From a virus (lineage: Duplodnaviria > Heunggongvirae > Uroviricota > Caudoviricetes), in IMG/VR virus record IMGVR_UViG_2531839450_000015: a DNA stretch of 44,713 nucleotides, one strand, 5' to 3'. Each line of letters starts with the position of its first letter. Positions within the stretch are counted from its first letter, which is position 1. The notes under the pieces were generated by a model, which was given only the letters and a program-made list of their open reading frames with translations, searched no databases and was not told the DNA's origin. Made by a program: the position numbers and the translations under genes. Positions 1-44,169 of this stretch are shown piece after piece.

Positions 1-582
1 TTACTCTGCAGGTGAAGTCGGCCACTCAATATCAGGTGCAGTTGATGTGTCAACACGGTTCAGCAATACCCGATACTTCTTCCAGGCTTCCAGCAACGAG
101 GTTTCTTCCTCCGTTGCAATTTCCAGATCTGCAGCATCCTGAAGCGGCGCAATATGCTCACTGGCTACCTGCATCAGGCTTTTTTTTGTTTCTTCCGCCT
201 CCCGGATCCGGAACAGTTTTTCTGCTTCCGTATCCTTCACCCAGGCTGTGCCGTTCCACTTCTGATATTCCCCTCCCGGCGATAACCAGGTAAAATTTTC
301 CGGTAACGGACCGGGTTCAGAAATAAATAACGCGTCGCCGGAAGCCACGTCATAGACGGTTTTACCCCGATGGTCTTCAACGAGATGCCACGATGCCTCA
401 TCACTGTTGAAAACAGCCACAAAGCCAGCCGGAATATCTGGCGGTGCAATATCGGTACTGTTTGCAGGCAGACCGGTATGAGGCGGAATATATGCGTCAC
501 CTTCACCAATAAATTCATTAGTTCCGGCCAGCAGATTATAAATTTTTATGGTCCGTGGTTGTTCACTCATTCTGAATGCCAT
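1..582 (-). CDS. tfa: Tail fibre assembly protein (lambda Tfa-like)
   Basis: 193-aa ORF directly downstream of the side tail fibre gene; stop codon at the window edge (1..3). Size and position match lambda Tfa. Confidence 0.8.
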
Positions 583-29156: not shown

Positions 29157-29315
29157 AGGATGATCCTTTTTCTATGTGAATCATCACCACTGCTGACGCC
29201 AATCAGTATGGTGGTGAACTGTGCAGGGTTGGCGTAACCGGGAAAAAGGAACCGGCGCGGATCGCTCCGCCCCCACACAGCCCACCATTGAGATGTGACA
29301 GTGCAAACGACAATA

Positions 29316-29340
29316 AAAAAGACGCTGGCGCGTCTGTTGT
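29316..29340 (-). terminator. tR'-like intrinsic terminator downstream of Q
   Basis: Minus-strand AGACGC-GCCA-GCGTCT followed by TTTTTTATT, located between the Q stop and the first late gene. Confidence 0.5.
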
Positions 29341-29429
29341 CGCCTTTTTCATCCGGGACGCCAATCCCGACGCCAGATTTTGCTGGCGCGTGAGGAATAT
29401 AGCCCCGGACAATGTGTCTGGTCAAGCTC

Positions 29430-31977: not shown

Positions 31978-32133
31978 TTACTCCTCAGGTTCGTAAACTG
32001 TGAAGACAGCGACCTCCGTCTGGCCGGTTCGGATTCGTACCTCGCAGAGGTCTTTCCTCGTTACCAGTGCCGTCACTATGACGGTTAAACAGATGACGAT
32101 CAGGGCGATTAACATCGCCTTTTGCTGCTTCAT
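31978..32133 (-). CDS. hok: Hok/Gef-family type I toxin
   Basis: MKQQKAMLIALIVICLTVIVTALVTRKDLCEVRIRTGQTEVAVFTVYEPEE is essentially the HokD/RelF sequence as I recall it. AAGGAG SD upstream. An overlapping upstream in-frame extension (to 32190) corresponds to a mok-like frame. Confidence 0.85.
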   Translation of the reverse strand: MKQQKAMLIALIVICLTVIVTALVTRKDLCEVRIRTGQTEVAVFTVYEPEE

Positions 32134-32542
32134 AGCCTGCTTCTCCTTGCCTTTCGGCACGTAAGAGGCTAACCTAGATTTGCCGTTCATAGATTGAGCC
32201 TCAGATTAATGTTAAGCGTCTTGCAGGACGCATAATGTTAACTGGGGCTTTTCTCTATCTGCCTTTGGTGTTCATGCTTGAGGCAGATAGCCTCAAGCAC
32301 CCGCAGCAATTTTACTTAACTCCCCTTTTCCCACAAATCGTTTTTATCCCTATTGGTAATGTTCTCCCGATGTGGGATTCCCACATTGGAACGAATTCAA
32401 TCAGTTAAAGACTCATCAGAATCTCACCTTTCTAAGTGCCCACAGGTGAGGCATTGCAATAAAAATAGCAAACGTGTATAAAAGGAGGTAATGCATGTTT
32501 TTCCAGTCTTATCAATCCATTACTGAGAGTTAAGGGGGCGCC

Positions 32543-33337
32543 GTGGATCGGTGCGGTAATTATTTACTTAAAGATGGTCGCAGTTTAGGACAAGGGAGTT
32601 TTGGCGAAGTATTTAAGGTTGATGTCTATAACTTAACCCAGACCCACATGACCACATATGCTCGCAAATACTTTTCACCTTGCCCGGACTTTGACAAGAC
32701 CGCTATAAAAGAGTTGACTGATTTAAGACAGCGTTTTTTAGTTGAGATCAAAACACAATGCACTCTCAATAGAATAAACTATGATTCAATAGCGCCAATA
32801 GTTTTATTTAATACAAATGGTGATAAACCTTATTTTGTTATGGAATTGGCAGAGTGTAATTTATATGAAGCCATCCGCAATGGTATGAATTACGCGGAGA
32901 GGAAGTCTGCTGTTACTCAGATTTTAAAAGGAATTATCACCATACATGAAAACAACTATATACATCGTGATTTAAAACCAGGAAACATACTTTATTATGC
33001 CGATGGAAAGTATAAAATATCTGATTTTGGTCTAGTAAAAGACAGAGATACCTTACGGGCCGAAATCAAAACAAAATTTAAGCCTAATCACATGGGCACA
33101 GATGGATATCGAGCGCCCGAAATACATGATAGCGGTCTTTTTTCTTTTCAAAGCGACATATTTGCAGCAGGTAAAATTATCACTGATATATATCCCACAG
33201 AAAGAAGTGAAAAATTAAAAAGATTGATTGCAAAATGTTGCGCACATTGGCCTGAAGAACGATATCAAAGCACACGGGAGTTACTGGAAGATTTTTTAAA
33301 AGTGACGGGGGAGGTAAATCATGAAGAACATAATTGA
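32543..33337 (+). CDS. Hanks-type (eukaryotic-like) Ser/Thr protein kinase
   Basis: Complete kinase signature set: Gly loop GQGSFGEV, lysine in YARK, catalytic loop HRDLKPGNIL, DFG (ISDFGLV), APE (GYRAPE). GTG start in the track; an in-frame SD-led ATG lies at 32495 but is followed by TAA. Confidence 0.85.
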   Translation: MDRCGNYLLKDGRSLGQGSFGEVFKVDVYNLTQTHMTTYARKYFSPCPDFDKTAIKELTDLRQRFLVEIKTQCTLNRINYDSIAPIVLFNTNGDKPYFVMELAECNLYEAIRNGMNYAERKSAVTQILKGIITIHENNYIHRDLKPGNILYYADGKYKISDFGLVKDRDTLRAEIKTKFKPNHMGTDGYRAPEIHDSGLFSFQSDIFAAGKIITDIYPTERSEKLKRLIAKCCAHWPEERYQSTRELLEDFLKVTGEVNHEEHN

Positions 33338-34036
33338 AATGGCATGTTTTAGCCTAAAACAACCCCAAAAAAAGAAAATGAAGACTTTTATTTACCGCCA
33401 TCTTTTGATAGCGATTTTAACATTGTCTTTGCAGTAGCTGATGGGGTTGGTTCCTCTGAACATTCAATGCTTGCATCTCATGCAGCCATTCGTGGCATTA
33501 GACACACGCTAGGCACTTCCTTTTTCTCAATTGAAAGTGCATTTCATTCAGCTAAAAAAGAAATTGACAATTTAGATATTAGCACTGCCACAACCTTAAC
33601 AATTGTTCAGATCAAAAAAAATGAAGTGTTAATTGGTCATTCCGGTGATTGCCGAGTATACTTCAATAAAAACAATAAACTAAATCAGTTAACCACTGAT
33701 CAAACGAGATATCAAGAACTCCTTGATTCTGGTGAACATAAATTACGTAATTTAAGAAATCATAAAGAACGGCTATCTTCAGTCCTAACGAATGCTTTAT
33801 CAAATACAACGGATTTGAATTTTGAGTTAATGTCTTTTCCGATTAGCCAGCTAATTTATAATGGCTATCTTCAACTCTATGCAATGACTGATGGTGCCTA
33901 TAAGCATTGGGATGTCAGACCAAGGTTTTCTGAGAAGACAATGCTCTCACCAACAGCTTTTGCGAGTAGTTTAAGAAAAAGGATTGAGAAAAACATAATG
34001 GATGATTACACCTTTATAGGCGTAAAAGTAACCTAA
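33321..34036 (+). CDS. PP2C-family Ser/Thr phosphatase; start and body are in different frames (requires -1 shift at 33368..33374, or is a frameshift pseudogene)
   Basis: Body frame shows the PP2C motifs KKENED, FAVADGVGS, GHSGDCRVYF, AMTDGAYK and DDYTFIGV. That frame has no start codon upstream of the conserved motifs. The SD-led ATG at 33321 is in the 0 frame and meets the body frame at A_AAA_AAG. Confidence 0.6.
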
Positions 34037-34973: not shown

Positions 34974-35396
34974 TCACAGTACCGCCTCCTGAAAATTACC
35001 CTGATAGAAAGCCAGTACACGCTGCATAGCTTCGCTCTTCCGGCACTCGCGACAGATTATATTCAGGCGCCTGTCGTAGCGGCGTATTTCTCCGTCTGGT
35101 AATGACCAGATAAGGTCCGGATCAACCGCAGATGGTTTCTTCGGCTTTGCCCTTGAGAGCTTTTTACGGGCATTTTGCCAGTCCTTACGCGCCTGTTCAG
35201 ACGGGAATAACCCGTAACCAGAATTGTATACATCGCCACTGGCAACCAGCTCTCTGGCCAGAACGCTCATCAGATATCTTGTTGCCCCAGTTTTAGCTTC
35301 CAGTTGTCGTAACGTCTCGCGCCCACTCTGGCGTACGAGTTCAACAACCTGCCCTTTAATTTTTTCCCGCTCTTCTTGTGTAAAAACTTTTGCCAC
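34974..35396 (-). CDS. Hypothetical protein downstream of the replication initiator (P-position gene)
   Basis: 140 aa, GTG start preceded by CAGGAGGG. The same CCTCCTGAAAATTACC upstream element recurs before the next small ORF. Confidence 0.45.
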   Translation of the reverse strand: MAKVFTQEEREKIKGQVVELVRQSGRETLRQLEAKTGATRYLMSVLARELVASGDVYNSGYGLFPSEQARKDWQNARKKLSRAKPKKPSAVDPDLIWSLPDGEIRRYDRRLNIICRECRKSEAMQRVLAFYQGNFQEAVL

Positions 35397-35436: not shown

Positions 35437-36513
35437 TTACCCCCTGAAGCCCGGCGGAATTTCGTTATCCGGTTCAGAAATATGATTCACACAACGCTGG
35501 TTGTTCGTGCCGCTTACCGGGAGCAACCAGGGGTTCTCAAAATTCCGGTCCGGTCCAAAAAACGTCGTCGCTCGCTGAACAAATTCCGTTCCCGTTTTCC
35601 CGGTAGCCGCCAAGTATCTTGCGTAACGCCTCACGCCATCCAGCATGGCCTCTGGTGGCACCCCCTCGCGTAATCTGGCCTTCCAGGCACTGAAAGCGGA
35701 TTTCTTCGGGTTTGCTCCGGCACGCAACGGGTACTCCCGCCAGACCTGTTCGAACACATCCGGATAATCCACTCGTCCCACAGACTGCCCGGTGTTTTCC
35801 GGGACTACCCGATCGGCTTCCCGCTGAATGGCGGAATCGGCTTCGGGCTGCTGCAGTTGGTGTGATTGCTCCGGCCTTGCGGTCATCACCTGCTGCACAG
35901 CGCCCGAATCGGCTTTCAGCGCATACGCTGAATCGGCTTCCGGTGTCGTGCCTGCTGGCTGACCAAGATTGACGGTCTGAACATCCCCTGCCTGGTTCGT
36001 GGCGTTTTTTACGCCATGGACCATAGTGTTTTGATCTTCTTGATCTGTATCTTTATCTGTATCTTTATCTGTCGTGACTCGTCGTGACATGTGCGTGACA
36101 TTTCGTGACGCGCCGTGACAATCGCCATTTTGTTCCCGCTTTCTTTCCCTCTCTCGCTGCGCCCTCTTACGCTCTGCAGGAGATTTTGCGGTTTGCGAAA
36201 TATTGCCGTTGTCCTCTTTAAGCACCTGGCGTTTTTCCCATCCAGTGATTAAATCACCATCAAGTACCCGCCCCTGCATCGTCTGCAAAATTGAATCAAT
36301 TACCTCTTCTGTCACGTCGAGCGCACTTGCCAAATCTTCTGTCGTGACATCAATGTGACCTCGCGTGACATTTCGTGACGCGCTCACCAGGAGGTGGATA
36401 TACACTGCCATCACTGTTGCAATTGGCTGCCCTGACACCCTGGCAATTGTTCGCCACTTAGGGTCATTTGGCATGTCATGCCATAATCTGAGCCAGGCGT
36501 TAGCCATACTCAC
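35437..36513 (-). CDS. Putative replication initiation protein (replisome organiser / O-like) carrying the origin iterons
   Basis: 358 aa in the O position downstream of the cro-like and cII-like genes. N-terminal W..L..DMPNDPKW...YIHLL pattern resembles phage replisome-organiser N-domains. Two iteron clusters lie inside the ORF. Confidence 0.5.
   Translation of the reverse strand: MSMANAWLRLWHDMPNDPKWRTIARVSGQPIATVMAVYIHLLVSASRNVTRGHIDVTTEDLASALDVTEEVIDSILQTMQGRVLDGDLITGWEKRQVLKEDNGNISQTAKSPAERKRAQRERERKREQNGDCHGASRNVTHMSRRVTTDKDTDKDTDQEDQNTMVHGVKNATNQAGDVQTVNLGQPAGTTPEADSAYALKADSGAVQQVMTARPEQSHQLQQPEADSAIQREADRVVPENTGQSVGRVDYPDVFEQVWREYPLRAGANPKKSAFSAWKARLREGVPPEAMLDGVRRYARYLAATGKTGTEFVQRATTFFGPDRNFENPWLLPVSGTNNQRCVNHISEPDNEIPPGFRG
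36043..36120 (-). repeat. Putative ori: five CGTGAC iterons at 10 to 11 bp spacing, preceded by a 12-bp AT-rich tandem repeat
   Basis: CGTGAC at 36073, 36083, 36094, 36104 and 36114. ATCTGTATCTTT repeated about 2.5 times at 36043..36071. Confidence 0.6.
36337..36382 (-). repeat. Second iteron cluster (four CGTGAC/TGTGAC repeats)
   Basis: Repeats at 36343, 36354, 36364 and 36374. A 21-bp block GCGTGACATTTCGTGACGCGC is shared with the first cluster. Confidence 0.55.
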
Positions 36514-36578: not shown

Positions 36579-37004
36579 TCAATGCACAGCCACAATATTT
36601 CCTGCAGGGCCACCACGATTCATCTGGTTGAAACCAGCGATCGCCACTGCGACAAAATCATCAGCGTCTCTCACCAGTCGTTCCCGCGTCTCCACTAGTT
36701 CCCGAAAATAGGCTGAGCTATGACTGCGCATTCGGGCCACCAGCAGAGGTGGCATTGCTTTTTCGATAGCTGGTAACAACGCCTGAATTTTTTTAACCGC
36801 ATCAGGGGTGTCTTTCTCCACCCAGCGGAAAATTTTCTGAGTATTGCGAGCCAGGGCTTCCGGATGGCTGTCGTCATACAGTTCCGGGAACGTCATTCCC
36901 AGCTCGAAATACGCTTTGGTAATTTTCGCAGCCGGTACTTTTTCGCCGTCCGGATGCGCCCAGGCATTCATCGCCATGCGGATGTGTTCATGCTTGATTT
37001 TCAT
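36579..37004 (-). CDS. YdaT-like protein (cII-position regulator of Rac-type switches)
   Basis: 141 aa directly downstream of, and overlapping, the cro-like gene, mirroring ydaS-ydaT of Rac. Assignment is by position and size. Confidence 0.5.
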   Translation of the reverse strand: MKIKHEHIRMAMNAWAHPDGEKVPAAKITKAYFELGMTFPELYDDSHPEALARNTQKIFRWVEKDTPDAVKKIQALLPAIEKAMPPLLVARMRSHSSAYFRELVETRERLVRDADDFVAVAIAGFNQMNRGGPAGNIVAVH

Positions 37005-37255
37005 GAATCAACTCCCATCAGCTTTTTCGTAGTAGTTTTATTCCTGCCAATAGTTAAAATTGCATCGGCAGAAAATAATCCGTTTGATGCAAGAGCGATT
37101 TTTTCAGCGTAATTTGTTTCGCCGGTATATTCTGTGCGAGGCAATTTTCCGTTATCCATCCATTTATAGATTGCTCTTTGGCTGACACCACAAACGTCGG
37201 CCACAACAGCAACGCGAACAGTTTTGATTACATCTTCAAGTGTTTTCTGGTTCAT
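37001..37255 (-). CDS. Cro-like HTH regulator (YdaS-like)
   Basis: Start refined to ATG at 37255 (MNQKTLEDVIKTVRVAVVADVCGVSQRAIYKWMDNGKLP), an HTH motif. Divergent from the repressor gene. Confidence 0.65.
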   Translation of the reverse strand: MNQKTLEDVIKTVRVAVVADVCGVSQRAIYKWMDNGKLPRTEYTGETNYAEKIALASNGLFSADAILTIGRNKTTTKKLMGVDS

Positions 37256-37334
37256 ATCACCCTCACAATGTGAACTTTGAGTACATGCTATAACAGAACT
37301 GACAGTACATTCAAGAGCGAATATCATTGAACTT
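37256..37334. promoter_or_regulatory. Divergent promoter/operator region of the immunity switch
   Basis: 79-bp AT-rich spacer between divergent regulators. Repeated AGTACAT and TGAACTT motifs. Confidence 0.45.
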
Positions 37335-37754
37335 ATGGTTCATGAAGATAAAGCGCGTAAAGAGTTCGCCAGTAGGCTTGCGCTAGCCTGTGAAAACGCT
37401 GGTTATGAACAACATGGAAGGCAGGCAGAAATTGCCCGTCGAATGAAATTAACACCAAAAGCGGTTAGCAAATGGTTTAATGGCGAAACAATTCCTCGCC
37501 GGGAGAAATTAAGGGAATTAGCAACACTAATAGGAACAACACCAACCTATCTTTTGGGAGAGGATACAGAAGAAAGTGGACAGGTACGTTTCTATCAAGA
37601 GTTAAATCCAAGACAAAAAATCATCATTGACCTTCTGGACGAGCTCCCTGACAGTGAGACAGATGAACTTTTAAAAACTCTTGAAGAGAAAAAACAGAAG
37701 TACAATGCAATTTACGAAGAGTTAGCACGAAAGAAAAAACAAAAAGCCTCTTAA
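37335..37754 (+). CDS. Prophage repressor, XRE/CI-like HTH (RacR-like)
   Basis: HTH (QAEIARRMKLTPKAVSKWFNGETIP) at the N-terminus. Divergent from the cro-like gene. Confidence 0.75.
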   Translation: MVHEDKARKEFASRLALACENAGYEQHGRQAEIARRMKLTPKAVSKWFNGETIPRREKLRELATLIGTTPTYLLGEDTEESGQVRFYQELNPRQKIIIDLLDELPDSETDELLKTLEEKKQKYNAIYEELARKKKQKAS

Positions 37755-40279: not shown

Positions 40280-42751
40280 ATGAGTAAAGTCTTTATTTGC
40301 GCCGCCATTCCGGACGAACAGGCAATAAAGGAAGAAGGTGCAGTCGCTGTAGCCACTGCCATTGAAGCCGGTGATGAACGTCGCGCCCGCGCAAAATTTC
40401 ACTGGCAATTCCTGGAACATTATCCGGCTGCTCAGGACTGCGCTTATAAATTTCTTGTTTGCGAGGATAAACCCGGTATACCCCGCCCTGCCCTCGATTC
40501 CTGGGATGCTGAATATATGCAGGAAAACCGCTGGGATGAGGAGTCTGCTTCCTTTGTCCCGGTTGAGACTGAATCAGATCCGATGAGCGTCACTTTTGAC
40601 AAGCTGGCCCCTGAAGTACAGAACGCTGTCATGGTTAAGTTCGACACATGTGAAAACATCACCGTTGATATGGTGATTAGCGCGCAGGAATTGTTGCAGG
40701 AAGACATGGCAACATTCGACGGACATATCGTTGAAGCGTTGATGAAAATGCCAGAAGTTAACGCCATGTATCCGGAGCTTAAGCTGCATGCCATCGGGTG
40801 GGTTAAGCATAAATGTAAGCCTGGTGCCAAATGGCCCGAAATTCAGGCAGAGATGCGCATCTGGAAAAAACGTCGCGAAGGTGAACGCAAAGAAACCGGG
40901 AAATACACGTCTGTTGTTGATCTTGCCCGCGCCAGAGTCAACCGGCAGCACACTGAAAACTCAGCAGGAAAAATCAACCCCGCCACTGCCGCCATTCGTC
41001 GCGAATACAAGCAGACATGGAAAACGCTGGATGAAGAACTGGCCTACGCTCTGTGGCCTGGCGATATTAATGCCGGAAACATTGACGGCAGCATCCATCG
41101 CTGGGCAAAAAATGAAGTTATCGACAAAGATCGCGAAGACTGGAAGCGCATTTCCGCATCAATGCGCAAACAACCCGATGCCGTTCGCTACGACCGTCAG
41201 ACTATTTTTGGCCTTGTCCGTGAGCGTCCGATCGACATTCACAAAGATCCTGTGGCGCTGAACAAATACATCACTGAATACCTGACTACAAAGGGCGTGT
41301 TTGAAGATGAAGGAAGAAATCAGAGCACAACTAATACTCTCCCGTCGCCAGTACCAGAAGCTGATGCAGTGGAAACGGCAATGCCGAACAACGAAAAAAC
41401 CGAATGCAAAGTGGAAGTCGAACCATCTGTAGAGCGTGAGGGGCCGTTCTACTTCCTCTTCACCGACAAGGATGGCGAAAAATACGGTCGCGCAAACAAA
41501 CTTTCTGGTCTGGATAAAGCACTGGCTGCCGGGGCTACTGAAATCACGAAAGAAGAATATTTCGCCCGCAAAAACGGTACATACTCAGGTTCACAACAAA
41601 ATACTGGTGCATCTGACACGACCGCACAACCAGGGCCGGTAAAAGTTACCGCTGACGAAGTAAACAAAATTATGCAGGCAGCCAATATCAGCCAGCCTGA
41701 CGCCGATGAACTGCTTGCAGTATCACGTGGTGAATTTGTTGCAGGGATTAGCGATCCGAATGATCCGAAATGGGTGAAGGGGATTGAAACCCGCGATTCT
41801 GTGAACCAGAACCAGCAAGAAACGGAACAGAACGACCAGAAAGCGGAACAAAACAGCCCAAATACGCAACAAAACGAGCCAGAAACGAAACAACCTGAAC
41901 CAGTAGTGCAACAGGAACCGGAAAAGATCTGCACCGCCTGCGGTCAAAGCGGTGGCGGCAACTGCCCTGATTGTGGTGCAGTGATGGGCGACGCAACATA
42001 CCAGGAAACATTCGATGACAAGAACCAGGTTGAAGTTCAGGAAGACGATTCGGAGAAAATGGAAGGCGCTGAACATCCACACAAGGAGAATGCTGGCAGC
42101 GCTCAGGATCACGCCAGCGATAGTGAAACTGGCGAGACGGCAGATCCCTTAATTACGGTGAACGGTCATCGCGTTATCACATCCACCAGCAGGACGTGTG
42201 ACCATCTAATGATCGACCTTGAAACCATGGGAAAAAATCCTGATGCCCCGATTATCTCAATAGGTGCAATATTTTTCGATCCGCAAACCGGAGATATGGG
42301 ACCGGAATTTAGTAAGACTATCGATCTGGAAACTGCTGGCGGAGTCATTGATCGGGACACCATTAAATGGTGGCTTAAGCAATCACGCGAAGCGCAATCT
42401 GCCATTATGACCGATGAAATCCCGTTAGATGATGCACTGCTACAATTGCGGGAATTTATCGACGAAAACTCCGGTGAATTTTTTGTTCAGGTCTGGGGAA
42501 ATGGAGCCAACTTCGACAACACGATTTTGCGCCGTTCATACGAACGGCAGGGGATCCCCTGCCCGTGGCGTTACTACAACGATCGCGATGTACGCACAAT
42601 CGTTGAGCTGGGGAAAGCCATAGACTTCGATGCCAGAACGGCTATTCCATTCGAAGGTGAGCGCCATAATGCACTTGATGACGCCCGTTACCAGGCAAAA
42701 TACGTTTCAGCTATCTGGCAAAAACTGATCCCGAGTCAGGCTGATTTTTAA
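40280..42751 (+). CDS. Large exonuclease-domain protein (RecE/exodeoxyribonuclease VIII-like annotation class) with C-terminal DnaQ-like fold
   Basis: 823 aa. C-terminal 200 aa carry DEDD-like acidic motifs (MIDLETMG, VWGNGANFDNTIL, HNALDDARY). A Q/N/E-rich linker and a CxxC..CxxC zinc ribbon (CTACGQSGGGNCPDCG) lie in the middle. Confidence 0.55.
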   Translation: MSKVFICAAIPDEQAIKEEGAVAVATAIEAGDERRARAKFHWQFLEHYPAAQDCAYKFLVCEDKPGIPRPALDSWDAEYMQENRWDEESASFVPVETESDPMSVTFDKLAPEVQNAVMVKFDTCENITVDMVISAQELLQEDMATFDGHIVEALMKMPEVNAMYPELKLHAIGWVKHKCKPGAKWPEIQAEMRIWKKRREGERKETGKYTSVVDLARARVNRQHTENSAGKINPATAAIRREYKQTWKTLDEELAYALWPGDINAGNIDGSIHRWAKNEVIDKDREDWKRISASMRKQPDAVRYDRQTIFGLVRERPIDIHKDPVALNKYITEYLTTKGVFEDEGRNQSTTNTLPSPVPEADAVETAMPNNEKTECKVEVEPSVEREGPFYFLFTDKDGEKYGRANKLSGLDKALAAGATEITKEEYFARKNGTYSGSQQNTGASDTTAQPGPVKVTADEVNKIMQAANISQPDADELLAVSRGEFVAGISDPNDPKWVKGIETRDSVNQNQQETEQNDQKAEQNSPNTQQNEPETKQPEPVVQQEPEKICTACGQSGGGNCPDCGAVMGDATYQETFDDKNQVEVQEDDSEKMEGAEHPHKENAGSAQDHASDSETGETADPLITVNGHRVITSTSRTCDHLMIDLETMGKNPDAPIISIGAIFFDPQTGDMGPEFSKTIDLETAGGVIDRDTIKWWLKQSREAQSAIMTDEIPLDDALLQLREFIDENSGEFFVQVWGNGANFDNTILRRSYERQGIPCPWRYYNDRDVRTIVELGKAIDFDARTAIPFEGERHNALDDARYQAKYVSAIWQKLIPSQADF

Positions 42752-42803: not shown

Positions 42804-43082
42804 GTGATAGCCATGAGCGAACAGTACCTGATAACGCTCGATGAGTGGAAGCCAAAACGGTTCAGTCTCCCAATAACAAACACTACCCTAGTGAAATACG
42901 GAAAACTAGGATACATCGTTCCAAGACCACAAAAAATTCGTGGGCGTTGGCTGATAGATCGCCGAGCAGTATTTGTTGGACCTGGTGAAACAGGAATTGC
43001 GCCGGAAATTCATACTGGCGATGATGATGCACTGAAGGAGATTTTAACTCATGTCACCGAGGCCACGAAAAAACAGCACTGA
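42804..43082 (+). CDS. xis: Excisionase (lambda Xis-like)
   Basis: YLITLDEWKPKRFSLPITNTTLVKYGKLGYIVPRP resembles the lambda Xis winged-helix region. Overlaps the int start. Confidence 0.65.
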   Translation: MIAMSEQYLITLDEWKPKRFSLPITNTTLVKYGKLGYIVPRPQKIRGRWLIDRRAVFVGPGETGIAPEIHTGDDDALKEILTHVTEATKKQH

Positions 43083-44169
43083 CGTAGCCGGACTTTACGA
43101 AAAATTTGATCGCAGAACTGGCAGAGTTTACTACCAGTATAAAAACCCTGTGACTGGAAAATTTCACGGGCTCGGAACAGACAAAGGTAAGGCAGAAAAA
43201 ATCGCTTCCACAGCCAATCAGCGAATAGCTGCAGCAGAGGCTGAATATTTCATGCGCAAAATTGATGAAAGTCCGTCAGCAACAAAGCGTCGGGGTATCA
43301 GATTAAAGGCATGGGTTGATCGATATCTGAAAATACAGGACACGCGACTGAAAAATGGAGATATTGCAGCTACAACTCACAAAGAAAAAGCCCGAATGGC
43401 TGCATACCTGGTTTCCCGTCTGGGAAACCACCCATTGAAAGAACTGGAAGTAAGAGACTTTGCATTAATACTGGATGAGTGGCTGGATAAAGACATGGTC
43501 AGCACAGCGAGAGTAAATCGTGGATTATGGGTTGATATTTATAAAGAAGCACAGCATGCAGGGGAAGTTCCTCCTGGATGGAATCCTCCGGAGGCTACCC
43601 GTAAACCGATCCCTAAAGTAACTAGAGCCAGGCTCACCCTGGAAGACTGGCAAAAAATTTACAACGCAACGCCTGAAAAACACTTTATCCGTAACGCAAT
43701 GCTTCTTGCGCTTGTTACTGGTCAGCGCCGTGATGACATTTGCCACATGCGTTTTTCAGATGTGTGGAACGAACACTTGCATATCACCCAGGGAAAAACC
43801 GGAATGCGTCTGGCGTTACCGCTTACACTACGCTGTGATGCCATTGGGATAACGTTAAAAGAAGTTATTGATGGGTGCCGAGACAGAATATTAAGTCCAT
43901 ATCTAATCCATAGTCGGCACCAGAAACAACCAAAGCCGATGAGTAAAGACAACCTGAGCGACTACTTTGCCAAAGCACGGGATCTGGCTGGGATAACTCC
44001 ACCAGCAGGAAAAACTCCGCCAACATTTCATGAACAACGCTCCCTGTCAGAACGACTGTACCGCGCGCAGGGTATTGATACAAAAACATTACTGGGACAT
44101 AAAGTCCAAGCAACCACCGATCGTTATAACGATACTCGTGGTCAGGAATGGGTTAAATTGGTTGTTTGA
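43051..44169 (+). CDS. int: Tyrosine integrase (lambda Int family)
   Basis: 372 aa with lambda-Int-like N-terminal arm-binding region and a catalytic domain (R in TGQRRDD, HEQRS, terminal Tyr in TDRYND). Confidence 0.9.
   Translation: MSPRPRKNSTDVAGLYEKFDRRTGRVYYQYKNPVTGKFHGLGTDKGKAEKIASTANQRIAAAEAEYFMRKIDESPSATKRRGIRLKAWVDRYLKIQDTRLKNGDIAATTHKEKARMAAYLVSRLGNHPLKELEVRDFALILDEWLDKDMVSTARVNRGLWVDIYKEAQHAGEVPPGWNPPEATRKPIPKVTRARLTLEDWQKIYNATPEKHFIRNAMLLALVTGQRRDDICHMRFSDVWNEHLHITQGKTGMRLALPLTLRCDAIGITLKEVIDGCRDRILSPYLIHSRHQKQPKPMSKDNLSDYFAKARDLAGITPPAGKTPPTFHEQRSLSERLYRAQGIDTKTLLGHKVQATTDRYNDTRGQEWVKLVV

Follow-up and report, generated by a model that had tools for sequence, protein, structure and literature searches.

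The IMG/VR virus record IMGVR_UViG_2531839450_000015 (Caudoviricetes) comprises 44,713 nucleotides (nt), and this whole stretch is herein called the window. On its minus strand, at positions 35437–36513, lies a gene for a replication initiator, which is 358 amino acids long when counted from the GTG at 36513. The gene had already been taken as a replication initiator in an earlier note, made from the letters of this DNA alone, and the open reading frame (ORF) list together with PHROG 3729 ("replication initiation protein") supports this assignment: the match is full length (E 5.5e-258), with residues 3–358 on profile positions 1–356 of 356. In Pfam, the initiator protein is without match at E 0.01. 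The coding sequence contains two arrays of one short repeat, named A and B, and an AT-rich tract that adjoins array B. This region is probably the replication origin of the prophage, embedded in its own initiator gene, with array A as a putative ancient auxiliary array for initiator binding.

The core of the repeats reads (T)GTCACG on the coding strand, is 6–7 base pairs (bp) long, and recurs with a period of 10–11 bp, with all arrays being built as direct repeats. Array B (36073–36119, minus strand) consists of five direct cores, GTCACG on the coding strand, which are exact copies of CGTGAC on the plus strand at 36073, 36083, 36094, 36104, and 36114 (spacing 10, 11, 10, and 10 bp) and are presumed to be the origin-proximal iterons. 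Array A (36343–36379, minus strand) lies upstream of array B in gene orientation. It shows exact copies of CGTGAC on the plus strand at 36343, 36364, and 36374 and the one-mismatch copy TGTGAC at 36354 (spacing 11, 10, and 10 bp); on the coding strand, these are GTCACG at 36343–36348, 36364–36369, and 36374–36379 and the variant GTCACA at 36354–36359. The nine repeats in clusters of five and four that the earlier note had counted are hence eight perfect copies and one imperfect copy, and the coordinates bear out the 10–11 bp spacing that it gave. A further copy, absent from that count, is inverted and reads GTCACG on the plus strand at 36311–36316 (TGTCACG at 36310–36316). It lies 27 bp downstream of array A in gene orientation and encodes D-V-T of the peptide ALDVTE. 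Arrays A and B are separated by 224 bp from edge to edge and have in common, besides the core, a 21-bp identical block, GCGTGACATTTCGTGACGCGC, which was found where it had been described, at 36093 and 36363. The offset of 260 bp previously assigned to the clusters holds for the register of the first copies, but not for the register of this block, which is 270 bp.

Such clustering is far from random. Nine of the 23 copies of CGTGAC/GTCACG in the 44.7-kb window sit within 310 bp (Poisson P ~4e-13 per 340-bp window), and random placement of the copies never gave more than five in 20,000 trials. CGTGAC is also the sole non-trivial hexamer in the window that reaches at least four copies per 50 bp. 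Several copies in the same orientation at regular spacing, as is typical of iteron origins, are present in both arrays (five and four copies), and arrays A and B form two separated clusters of one repeat, as is typical of bipartite origins. The repeats also give rise to a duplicated peptide, ASRNVT...VTT, in agreement with the previous description, with ASRNVT at residues 45 and 135 and VTT at residues 56 and 146. The core is translated in all three frames (TGT CAC GGC, GCG TCA CGA, and AAT GTC ACG). Because of these three reading frames and the 10–11 bp period, the repetition is one of the DNA and not of the peptide.

Array B is directly followed by the candidate DNA unwinding element (36029–36072), an AT-rich tract that is purine rich on the coding strand and encodes DKDTDKDTDQED. 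The AT-rich 12-bp tandem repeat that had been noticed next to the clusters was recovered by Tandem Repeats Finder as 2.9 copies of TCTTTATCTGTA at 36038–36072, with a 12-bp unit that reads ACAGATAAAGAT on the coding strand. The GC fraction of 0.33 at 36020–36079 is the lowest in the gene, and the least stable 40-mer of the gene, 36029–36069, begins 3 bp past array B. Its nearest-neighbor free energy amounts to −44.7 kcal/mol versus a gene mean of −58.8 kcal/mol (standard deviation 3.8; z 3.7), and its instability corresponds to the 99.6th percentile of the window. An easily melted AT-rich tract, the second hallmark of iteron origins, adjoins the repeats. Counted from the gene start, array B occupies nt 395–441 and the tract begins at ~445, with array B and the 12-bp repeat together spanning nt 395–485. 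Two GATC (Dam) sites, at 36033 and 36042 and 9 bp apart, lie inside the candidate unwinding element; the 1.07-kb gene has only one GATC elsewhere, and GATC also occurs in the tract of several relatives (L026 and L039).

Just past the AT-rich tract, an imperfect 13-bp inverted repeat with a 5-nt loop (35993–36023) encodes the peptide NTMVHGVKNAT. It resembles the palindrome that borders the AT-rich region in ori-lambda and may be part of the origin, for which the evidence is weak. As a conserved part of the origin, the palindrome was rejected, since a strict hairpin is found near the AT-rich tract in just four of 49 relatives. Enteric relatives whose N- or C-terminal domains differ nonetheless retain the peptide NT(M/L)VHG.K. 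Counts of internal promoters and terminators in the gene were not above those of shuffled sequences, the sole "terminator" being this palindrome; no Rfam match was obtained inside the initiator gene. Between 35300 and 36700, no consensus site for integration host factor (IHF) was found, and the only DnaA box, a relaxed match at 35377, falls outside the gene.

The initiator itself consists of an N-terminal winged-helix domain, a disordered linker, and a DnaT-like C-terminal domain. The N-terminal domain is encoded by 36223–36507 on the minus strand (residues ~3–97) and is presumed to bind the iterons. Its AlphaFold2 model, calculated from a 13-sequence alignment, is confident only for residues ~11–90, with predicted local distance difference test (pLDDT) values of 70–89. 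It contains helices at residues 3–13, 18–27, 31–47, 58–65, and 69–79 and a β-wing at residues 80–88, which corresponds to a winged-helix topology. In a Foldseek search against the PDB, the domain gave weak matches only, to generic winged-helix regulators (E >0.7). Array A encodes residues ~45–57, namely, in this model, the end of helix 31–47 and the surface loop RNVTRGHIDVT. The loop (residues 48–57) is variable in length among relatives, and insertions such as TCHGVSR bring further cores with them. Linker residues 130–247 are disordered (pLDDT <50). Array B encodes residues 132–148 at the start of this interdomain linker, and array B together with the AT-rich tract encodes residues 132–161. 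The position within linker-coding sequence is a further trait of iteron origins of the in-gene kind, and the offset in the gene is the same as in lambda O and SPP1 gene 38.

The C-terminal domain is encoded by 35437–35766 on the minus strand (residues ~250–358), ends with the tail SEPDNEIPPGFRG, and is presumed to be the effector that acts on the opened DNA and on the primosome of the host. A profile of alignment A2 matched the C-terminal domain of DnaT in the PDB (6aep, E 1.2e-7; 2ru8, E 4.6e-6; 9zbt, E 2.9e-5), and these matches are aligned to the last residue, with the terminal motif SEPDxxIPPGFRG being shared between the initiator and DnaT. Relatives carry PF17948, for which the window protein alone stays below Pfam significance. 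By these profile comparisons, the C-terminal ~100 residues of the initiator are homologous to the single-stranded DNA (ssDNA)–binding C-terminal domain of DnaT, which assembles into a filament along lagging-strand ssDNA and docks onto PriA (PMC13377028). Against the DnaT family of NCBIfam, only the last 24 residues match, with 19 bits versus an equivalog cutoff of 201, which rules out the initiator as a DnaT ortholog.

Two further family assignments were considered for the initiator. PF09681 (Phage_rep_org_N) covers the window protein over profile positions 1–118 of 121, with a score of 12.7 bits (E 0.13) for a cutoff of 23.3, and reaches 17.4 bits for the relative L030. With this subthreshold score and an hhalign probability of 0.2%, homology of the N-terminal domain to SPP1 G38P is unsupported, and membership of the initiator in the G38P/Phage_rep_org_N family is, on sequence grounds, not established. 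The lambda O family (Phage_rep_O) is excluded by the lack of a Pfam match at E 0.01 and by the direct repeats at 10–11 bp as opposed to iterons of ~18 bp with inverted symmetry. As for the start codon, the ATG at 36507 is preceded by GAGG (Shine-Dalgarno) and gives a 356-residue initiator. The protein cluster P0001, which is 99% identical to the initiator, is 356 residues long, contains 5786 member sequences, and is named "phage replisome organizer." Because of the preceding GAGG and the match of the 356-residue form to these 5786 database members, the true start is probably the ATG at 36507 rather than the GTG at 36513.

For the comparison across relatives, a genome scan with the full-length homolog alignment yielded 50 loci that share the N-terminal domain (WLRLWHDMPNDPKW) and stem from Gamma-, Beta-, and Alphaproteobacteria and a few other metagenome bins. 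In an unbiased test, the most phased hexamer was taken from the array A region alone (50–170 nt past a DPKW anchor) and sought across the 5.4-kb locus. This hexamer reappears as a 10-bp-phased cluster at the position of array B in 37 of the 50 loci, and elsewhere on the same strand of the ~5.4 kb it has 0–2 copies (up to six in a few loci). The core varies by lineage yet is identical in both arrays of a locus: GTCACG is found in most loci, GTAACG in six (L021, L024, L030, L033, L038, and L039), and (C)GAACG in about ten. The position of array A is kept at +86, +96, +106, and +117 from the anchor. The inverted copy recurs at the same offset (anchor +149) in 14 loci of the GTCACG type, and its valine codon ends with G in 17 of 17 loci. 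Locus L024, which is of the GTAACG type, has CGTTAC at this place, a change that matches that of the core. In the lineages with a GAACG core, the inverted copy is mostly absent. Spacers between cores are similar across both arrays of a locus, which fits gene conversion between arrays A and B.

The frozen four-fold degenerate sites of array A are direct evidence that it is selected at the nucleotide level, irrespective of the protein it encodes. Among 20 ungapped loci of the GTCACG type, the mean entropy of such sites in the cores of array A and in the inverted copy is 0.11 bit (n = 8) versus 1.62 bit elsewhere in the domain (n = 29; Mann-Whitney p 1e-5), with the other synonymous sites being saturated. 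The arrays hold their position and co-vary across lineages at 35–70% protein identity. At the level of sequence, this comparison establishes arrays A and B as selected, co-varying, and helically phased. Because their positions are conserved and their sequences co-vary across Gamma-, Beta-, and Alphaproteobacteria, both arrays are ancient, and the two-array layout is an ancestral design of the family and no peculiarity of this phage.

The AT-rich tract is equally persistent. In two-array relatives, the least stable 40-mer of the gene starts −10 to +60 bp from the end of array B in 37 of 38 cases, and this 40-mer always consists of hexamer repeats that are purine rich on the coding strand, for example, CAGATAAAGATAAAGATA, CAGATACAGATACAGATA, and AGATAAGAGAAGA. 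The encoded linkers are of low complexity, such as TDKDTDKD, PDTDTD, and IREEE. Repeats of the (GATAAA)n or (GATACA)n type come after array B in relatives. Close relatives from Escherichia coli and Shigella (alignment A1) differ from each other by whole repeat units: P0003 and P0022 have extra cores in both arrays, and P0002 has one DKDT unit fewer. P0019, of 302 residues, has a deletion of part of array B, the AT-rich tract, and ~40 further residues; its carrier is probably a replication-dead prophage.

A natural chimera separates the arrays from their surroundings. The initiator P0032 of locus L051 has its C-terminal 56% in common with the window protein (98% identity), and the cII/YdaT-like and DUF977 genes that flank it match their window counterparts at 97% and 93% identity; the N-terminal domain, however, is different. 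Both arrays are herein replaced by AAGGGGCT, located at nt 185 and 196 (plus GGGCTT at 172) and at nt 441, 452, and 463, and no further AAGGGGCT was found in the 6.1 kb of this locus. The initiator of L051 (2501–3610) has an N-terminal domain that belongs to a second, very divergent family ("DNA-binding protein," MRDYAKVSPRFW; L051 and L055–L134) that has the same two-array layout, with both arrays kept in 52 of 53 distinct variants from viral contigs. In the AlphaFold2 model of this family, array A encodes residues 58–69, which form a turn and the N-terminal half of helix 3 in the winged helix. Conversely, the window-type N-terminal domain with its GTCACG arrays is fused to unalignable C-terminal halves in other loci. 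The chimera and these alternative C-terminal halves indicate that the N-terminal domain makes up a single cassette with arrays A and B and the tract behind array B. The arrays travel with this domain and not with the neighboring genes or the C-terminal domain. A repeat that is specific to, and inherited with, the DNA-binding domain, as expected for an iteron origin, is seen both in the co-variation by lineage and in the swap of L051.

The distance between arrays A and B is 256 bp in the second family and 260 bp in the window. Since the distance is nearly equal even though array A encodes different protein elements in the two families, there is a hint that the arrays may be geometrically coupled, a hint given by two data points and models of moderate confidence.

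As controls for the origin, lambda O and SPP1 gene 38 were analyzed with the script used for the window. In lambda O, the four annotated iterons lie at nt 349–433 and the least stable 40-mer at nt 436, and no second iteron cluster was found in O or within 2.6 kb, with up to five mismatches allowed. In SPP1 gene 38, GAAACGACA/GAAAAAGACA repeats phased at 11 bp lie at nt 360–405 and are followed by an AT-rich 9-bp tandem repeat encoding INNNDNNENNDNK; a cluster resembling array A was not seen in this gene, which has one extra AAAAAGACA at nt 292. Array B and its tract match SPP1 oriL and ori-lambda, two experimentally proven origins, in layout and in position within the gene. The location of the origin inside the initiator gene is well supported, rather than demonstrated, by the comparative evidence as a whole. 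The lambda-like arrangement of an origin inside gene O, which the earlier note had invoked, is herein upheld, with iterons in linker-coding sequence followed by an AT-rich tract, and extends to SPP1 oriL. The same note had considered a duplicated origin as one reason for the two clusters and a looped initiator complex, which may hold, as another. The duplication is not sustained: only array B has an adjoining unwinding element, and a recent duplication of the origin is ruled against by array A lacking such an element and by both arrays being ancient, conserved in position, and co-varying.

Several observations weigh against the origin and its proposed mode of action. That the initiator binds the cores, that the AT-rich tract is melted, and that the region acts as an origin has been inferred from sequence. 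By exact-word tests, 11–13 of ~50 relatives are without two clear arrays, for which degenerate or different cores may be the reason. In the second family, the purine-rich (GAACAG)n tract that follows array B is not the least stable part of the gene. A test for helical phase between arrays A and B over 22 geometries gave p 0.01 for a helical repeat of 10.0 bp and 0.14 for 10.5 bp, and its outcome hence hangs on the assumed repeat. The near-constant distance between the arrays may perhaps just be the length of the protein domain encoded between them. In 40 N-terminal domains from lineages with different cores, no class-specific columns were found outside the array A loop. Finally, the route from a DnaT C-terminal-type domain to DnaB-DnaC is unknown even for DnaT itself (PMC13377028).

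For the in-gene origin, the following sequence of events is proposed. Transcripts would first start at the early rightward promoter and run through the cro-like and cII/YdaT-like genes. Initiator monomers would then bind head to tail by their winged-helix domains, one per core, and would be stacked on one face of the DNA. Under negative supercoiling, the complex on array B would melt the adjoining (GATAAA/GATACA)n tract, in parallel to O at ori-lambda and G38P at oriL. On their tether, the disordered linker of ~100 residues, the DnaT-like C-terminal domains could coat the single strand and/or dock on the host PriA, and either would bring in DnaB-DnaC. Recruitment of the host DnaB-DnaC by the DnaT-like domain would account for the lack of a P-like, DnaC-like, or helicase gene after the initiator. 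Array A, ~210–260 bp upstream and devoid of an unwinding element, would most likely loop onto the array B complex and stabilize or regulate it. This role of array A is the least certain step of the mechanism, since the sequence does not choose between looping and a control site.

The alternative that survives best, and to which a lesser yet appreciable chance is given, is that array B and the AT-rich tract form the whole origin and that array A serves the same initiator as a site of negative or accessory control. Such a site could serve for titration or handcuffing of origins, as an autoregulatory transcriptional roadblock, or as a fork barrier (for unidirectional replication or a theta-to-sigma switch). 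The incA iterons of P1, for example, titrate or handcuff origins. In line with a control function, array A has no adjoining tract of low stability and is situated inside a transcribed gene upstream of array B, and the comparative data speak for its selection and co-variation, not for its action. A second site of G38P in SPP1, oriR, is thought to stall forks (PMC6316719; PMC3485210), and G38P bound there is the proposed trigger of the theta-to-sigma switch; in addition, lambda-type iterons distal to the AT-rich tract are weakly bound (PMC7466680). However, nothing in the sequence sets a control site apart from a positive architectural role, and the distance of 256–260 bp in both families fits a joint complex at least as well. 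The control site also overlaps with the preferred looping of array A onto array B and does not exclude it.

Binding of the repeats by another protein with a regulatory role, be it a host factor, the cII/YdaT-like protein, or DUF977/LygF, is very unlikely. The neighboring genes do encode proteins of DNA-binding type, and the initiator as the binding partner has been deduced. In L051, however, the YdaT-like and DUF977 proteins are nearly those of the window, yet the core differs and changes only with the N-terminal domain of the initiator. A conserved host factor would not explain three or more lineage-specific cores. The arrays persist from Enterobacterales to Alphaproteobacteria and a few nonproteobacterial metagenome bins. 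Slighter still is the chance that the repeats act in the mRNA and control the translation or stability of the initiator. In the minimum free energy structure of the transcript, the inverted copy at 36311–36316 can be paired to one of the direct copies in array A, but the folds are no stabler than those of shuffled sequences (z −1.2 for array A and −0.9 for array B), lineages with the GAACG core are mostly without the inverted copy, and a DNA periodicity of one turn next to an AT-rich tract is unexpected for an RNA element. Least credible of all is a by-product of protein repetition or of recent slippage or duplication without function at the DNA level: although the ASRNVT...VTT peptide and the 21-bp block resemble a recent duplication or gene conversion and close relatives vary in the copy number of both arrays and of the 12-bp repeat, this is contradicted by the frozen synonymous core sites of the 20 distant loci and opposed by array positions that are kept and co-vary across lineages and by an AT-rich tract that always comes after array B, and a repeat at the peptide level is rejected by these frozen sites together with a period that is not a multiple of three and the use of three frames.

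How the initiator would recognize its core leads back to array A. Across core types, the remainder of the N-terminal domain is near-invariant (WLRLWHDMPNDPKWRTIAR, EDLASALD, and AMQGRVLDG..GWEKRQ), and the determinant of specificity could be the array A–encoded loop itself. From this follows the speculative and rather improbable idea that the initiator may read, in array A, the very DNA from which its own reading segment is translated; it is suggested by the array A loop being the sole segment that differs with the core and by array A of the second family encoding the start of the recognition helix in the model. If the array A segment did set specificity, site and reader would be one sequence, and gene conversion between arrays A and B would spread changes so that origin and initiator switch together. 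A weaker form of this idea is that an obligatory looped complex of two arrays ~25 helical turns apart may be general to one-protein phage replication modules.

The initiator gene belongs to a Rac/lambdoid early-right operon. The genes around it are a cI-like repressor (37335–37754, plus strand), a cro-like gene (37001–37327, minus strand), a cII/YdaT-like gene (36579–37004, minus strand), and a DUF977/LygF/Ren-like gene (34974–35396, minus strand), which is the next gene downstream of the initiator. After the initiator, no gene for a helicase or a loader (P-like or DnaC-like) is found; DUF977/LygF stands there instead. Near-identical initiator genes are present in Escherichia phages vB_EcoS-689R5, Tritos, and Evi, and the one phage record that was looked at has no annotated origin. 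The 431-bp stretch 35990–36420 was found in 2077 of 5426 complete E. coli genomes, where the gene over it is mostly annotated as "hypothetical protein" or "phage replisome organizer."

Elsewhere, the window contains a eukaryote-like Ser/Thr protein kinase (Pkinase, E 1.4e-31) at 32543–33337 on the plus strand, followed on the same strand by a 189-residue ORF (33467–34036) without Pfam match. The latter has a GHSGDCRVY motif, which may be PP2C-phosphatase-like. Lying on the strand opposite to the replication genes, the kinase and this ORF are probably a moron. Rfam matches at gathering score in 29207–29402 and 32128–32302 (both minus strand) correspond to a C4 antisense RNA with a1/b1 target plus isrK, as in the antirepressor immunity module of the P1/P7 type, and to a sok antitoxin RNA of the hok/sok type; an IS009 RNA was matched at 41–239 (minus strand). 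An 823-residue protein (40280–42751, plus strand) has a C-terminal Rv2179c-like 3′-5′ exonuclease domain, and at the right end lies a lambda-type integrase (43051–44169, plus strand) with Arm-DNA-binding and Phage_integrase domains. The integrase and the gene order from tail to immunity, as suggested by ORF sizes, indicate that the window is a nearly complete lambdoid/Rac-like prophage.

Among the prophage replication modules of E. coli and Shigella, the one to which the region belongs, and of which it is probably the origin, is one of the commonest, with relatives in O157 and Stx (Shiga toxin) phages. This module appears to need a single phage protein, in which an origin-binding winged-helix domain is fused to a DnaT-like domain. 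The fusion points to a hijack of the PriA/DnaT restart primosome of the host, instead of a loader of the lambda P type, and hence to an alternative route of DnaB loading. Three cores in one domain family and a fourth in the second provide a natural series for the co-change of initiator and site specificity within one reading frame. An origin at this place will not surprise a specialist; the two-array design, the frozen synonymous sites, the specificity series, and the prevalence in E. coli are what is worthwhile. In the literature on replisome organizers, oriJ/Rac, DnaT-like initiators, and the replication regions of Stx phages, no description was found of this origin or of the two-array layout, nor of an in-gene origin paired with a DnaT-like effector in a one-gene module; the coverage of this literature is incomplete, which makes it weak evidence.

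Among known systems, ori-lambda shares the position in the middle of the gene, in linker-coding sequence, and the succession of iterons and AT-rich tract, and its iteron number likewise varies among relatives (PMC7466680, from which the architecture is taken). The order of cI, cro, cII-like gene, and initiator, with a Ren-like gene nearby, is also that of lambda. In contrast, lambda has 18-bp iterons with inverted symmetry at a spacing of 20–24 bp, as opposed to direct cores of 6–7 bp every 10–11 bp in the window, and requires P for the recruitment of DnaB, whereas the window has no P gene. Two separated clusters of one initiator-binding repeat exist in P1 (oriR with incC, and incA), F (ori2 and incC), and P4 (ori and crr). 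Here, one cluster lies by the unwinding region, and the distant one loops or handcuffs, acting as a required enhancer (P4 crr) or in copy control (P1 incA). In these replicons, however, the clusters flank the initiator gene or lie outside it and are built from units of 8–22 bp, whereas both arrays of the window are inside coding sequence.

SPP1 oriL resembles the window in lying inside the initiator gene, gene 38, and in its short direct repeats of 11-bp period followed by an AT-rich repeat that encodes a low-complexity linker. A 356-bp fragment of oriL is necessary and sufficient for in vitro replication, and the origin-binding protein is likewise not an AAA+ protein (PMC5737612). G38P, moreover, binds a second site, oriR (PMC6316719). 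Unlike array A, oriR is ~13 kb away and has its own AT-rich element, and SPP1 encodes the loader and helicase G39P and G40P, whereas the window module has neither and carries a DnaT-like C-terminal domain. In the origins of staphylococcal pathogenicity islands (SaPI), a winged-helix domain also reads penta- or hexanucleotide iterons in two sets (PMC9371898); these sets, however, flank the AT-rich region in opposite orientation downstream of rep, and the initiator is itself a helicase.

TrfA and RepE are winged-helix Rep proteins that bind direct repeats as monomers and, in addition, repeated motifs in the AT-rich single strand (PMC4081077; PMC10602881), and they provide a precedent for the hexamer-repetitive tract being more than merely AT rich. 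In these proteins, it is the winged-helix domains that contact ssDNA, whereas in the window protein the separate DnaT-like domain is the candidate for this contact. DnaT of E. coli differs from the initiator in having an N-terminal oligomerization domain and an acidic linker as opposed to a winged-helix domain and a long disordered linker. An in-gene origin of iterons and an AT-rich tract is hence of a known kind, as in lambda and SPP1. What appears to be new is the second array, which sits among the codons for the DNA-binding domain, has been conserved, with co-variation, throughout Proteobacteria, and recurs in a second, very divergent family of N-terminal domains.

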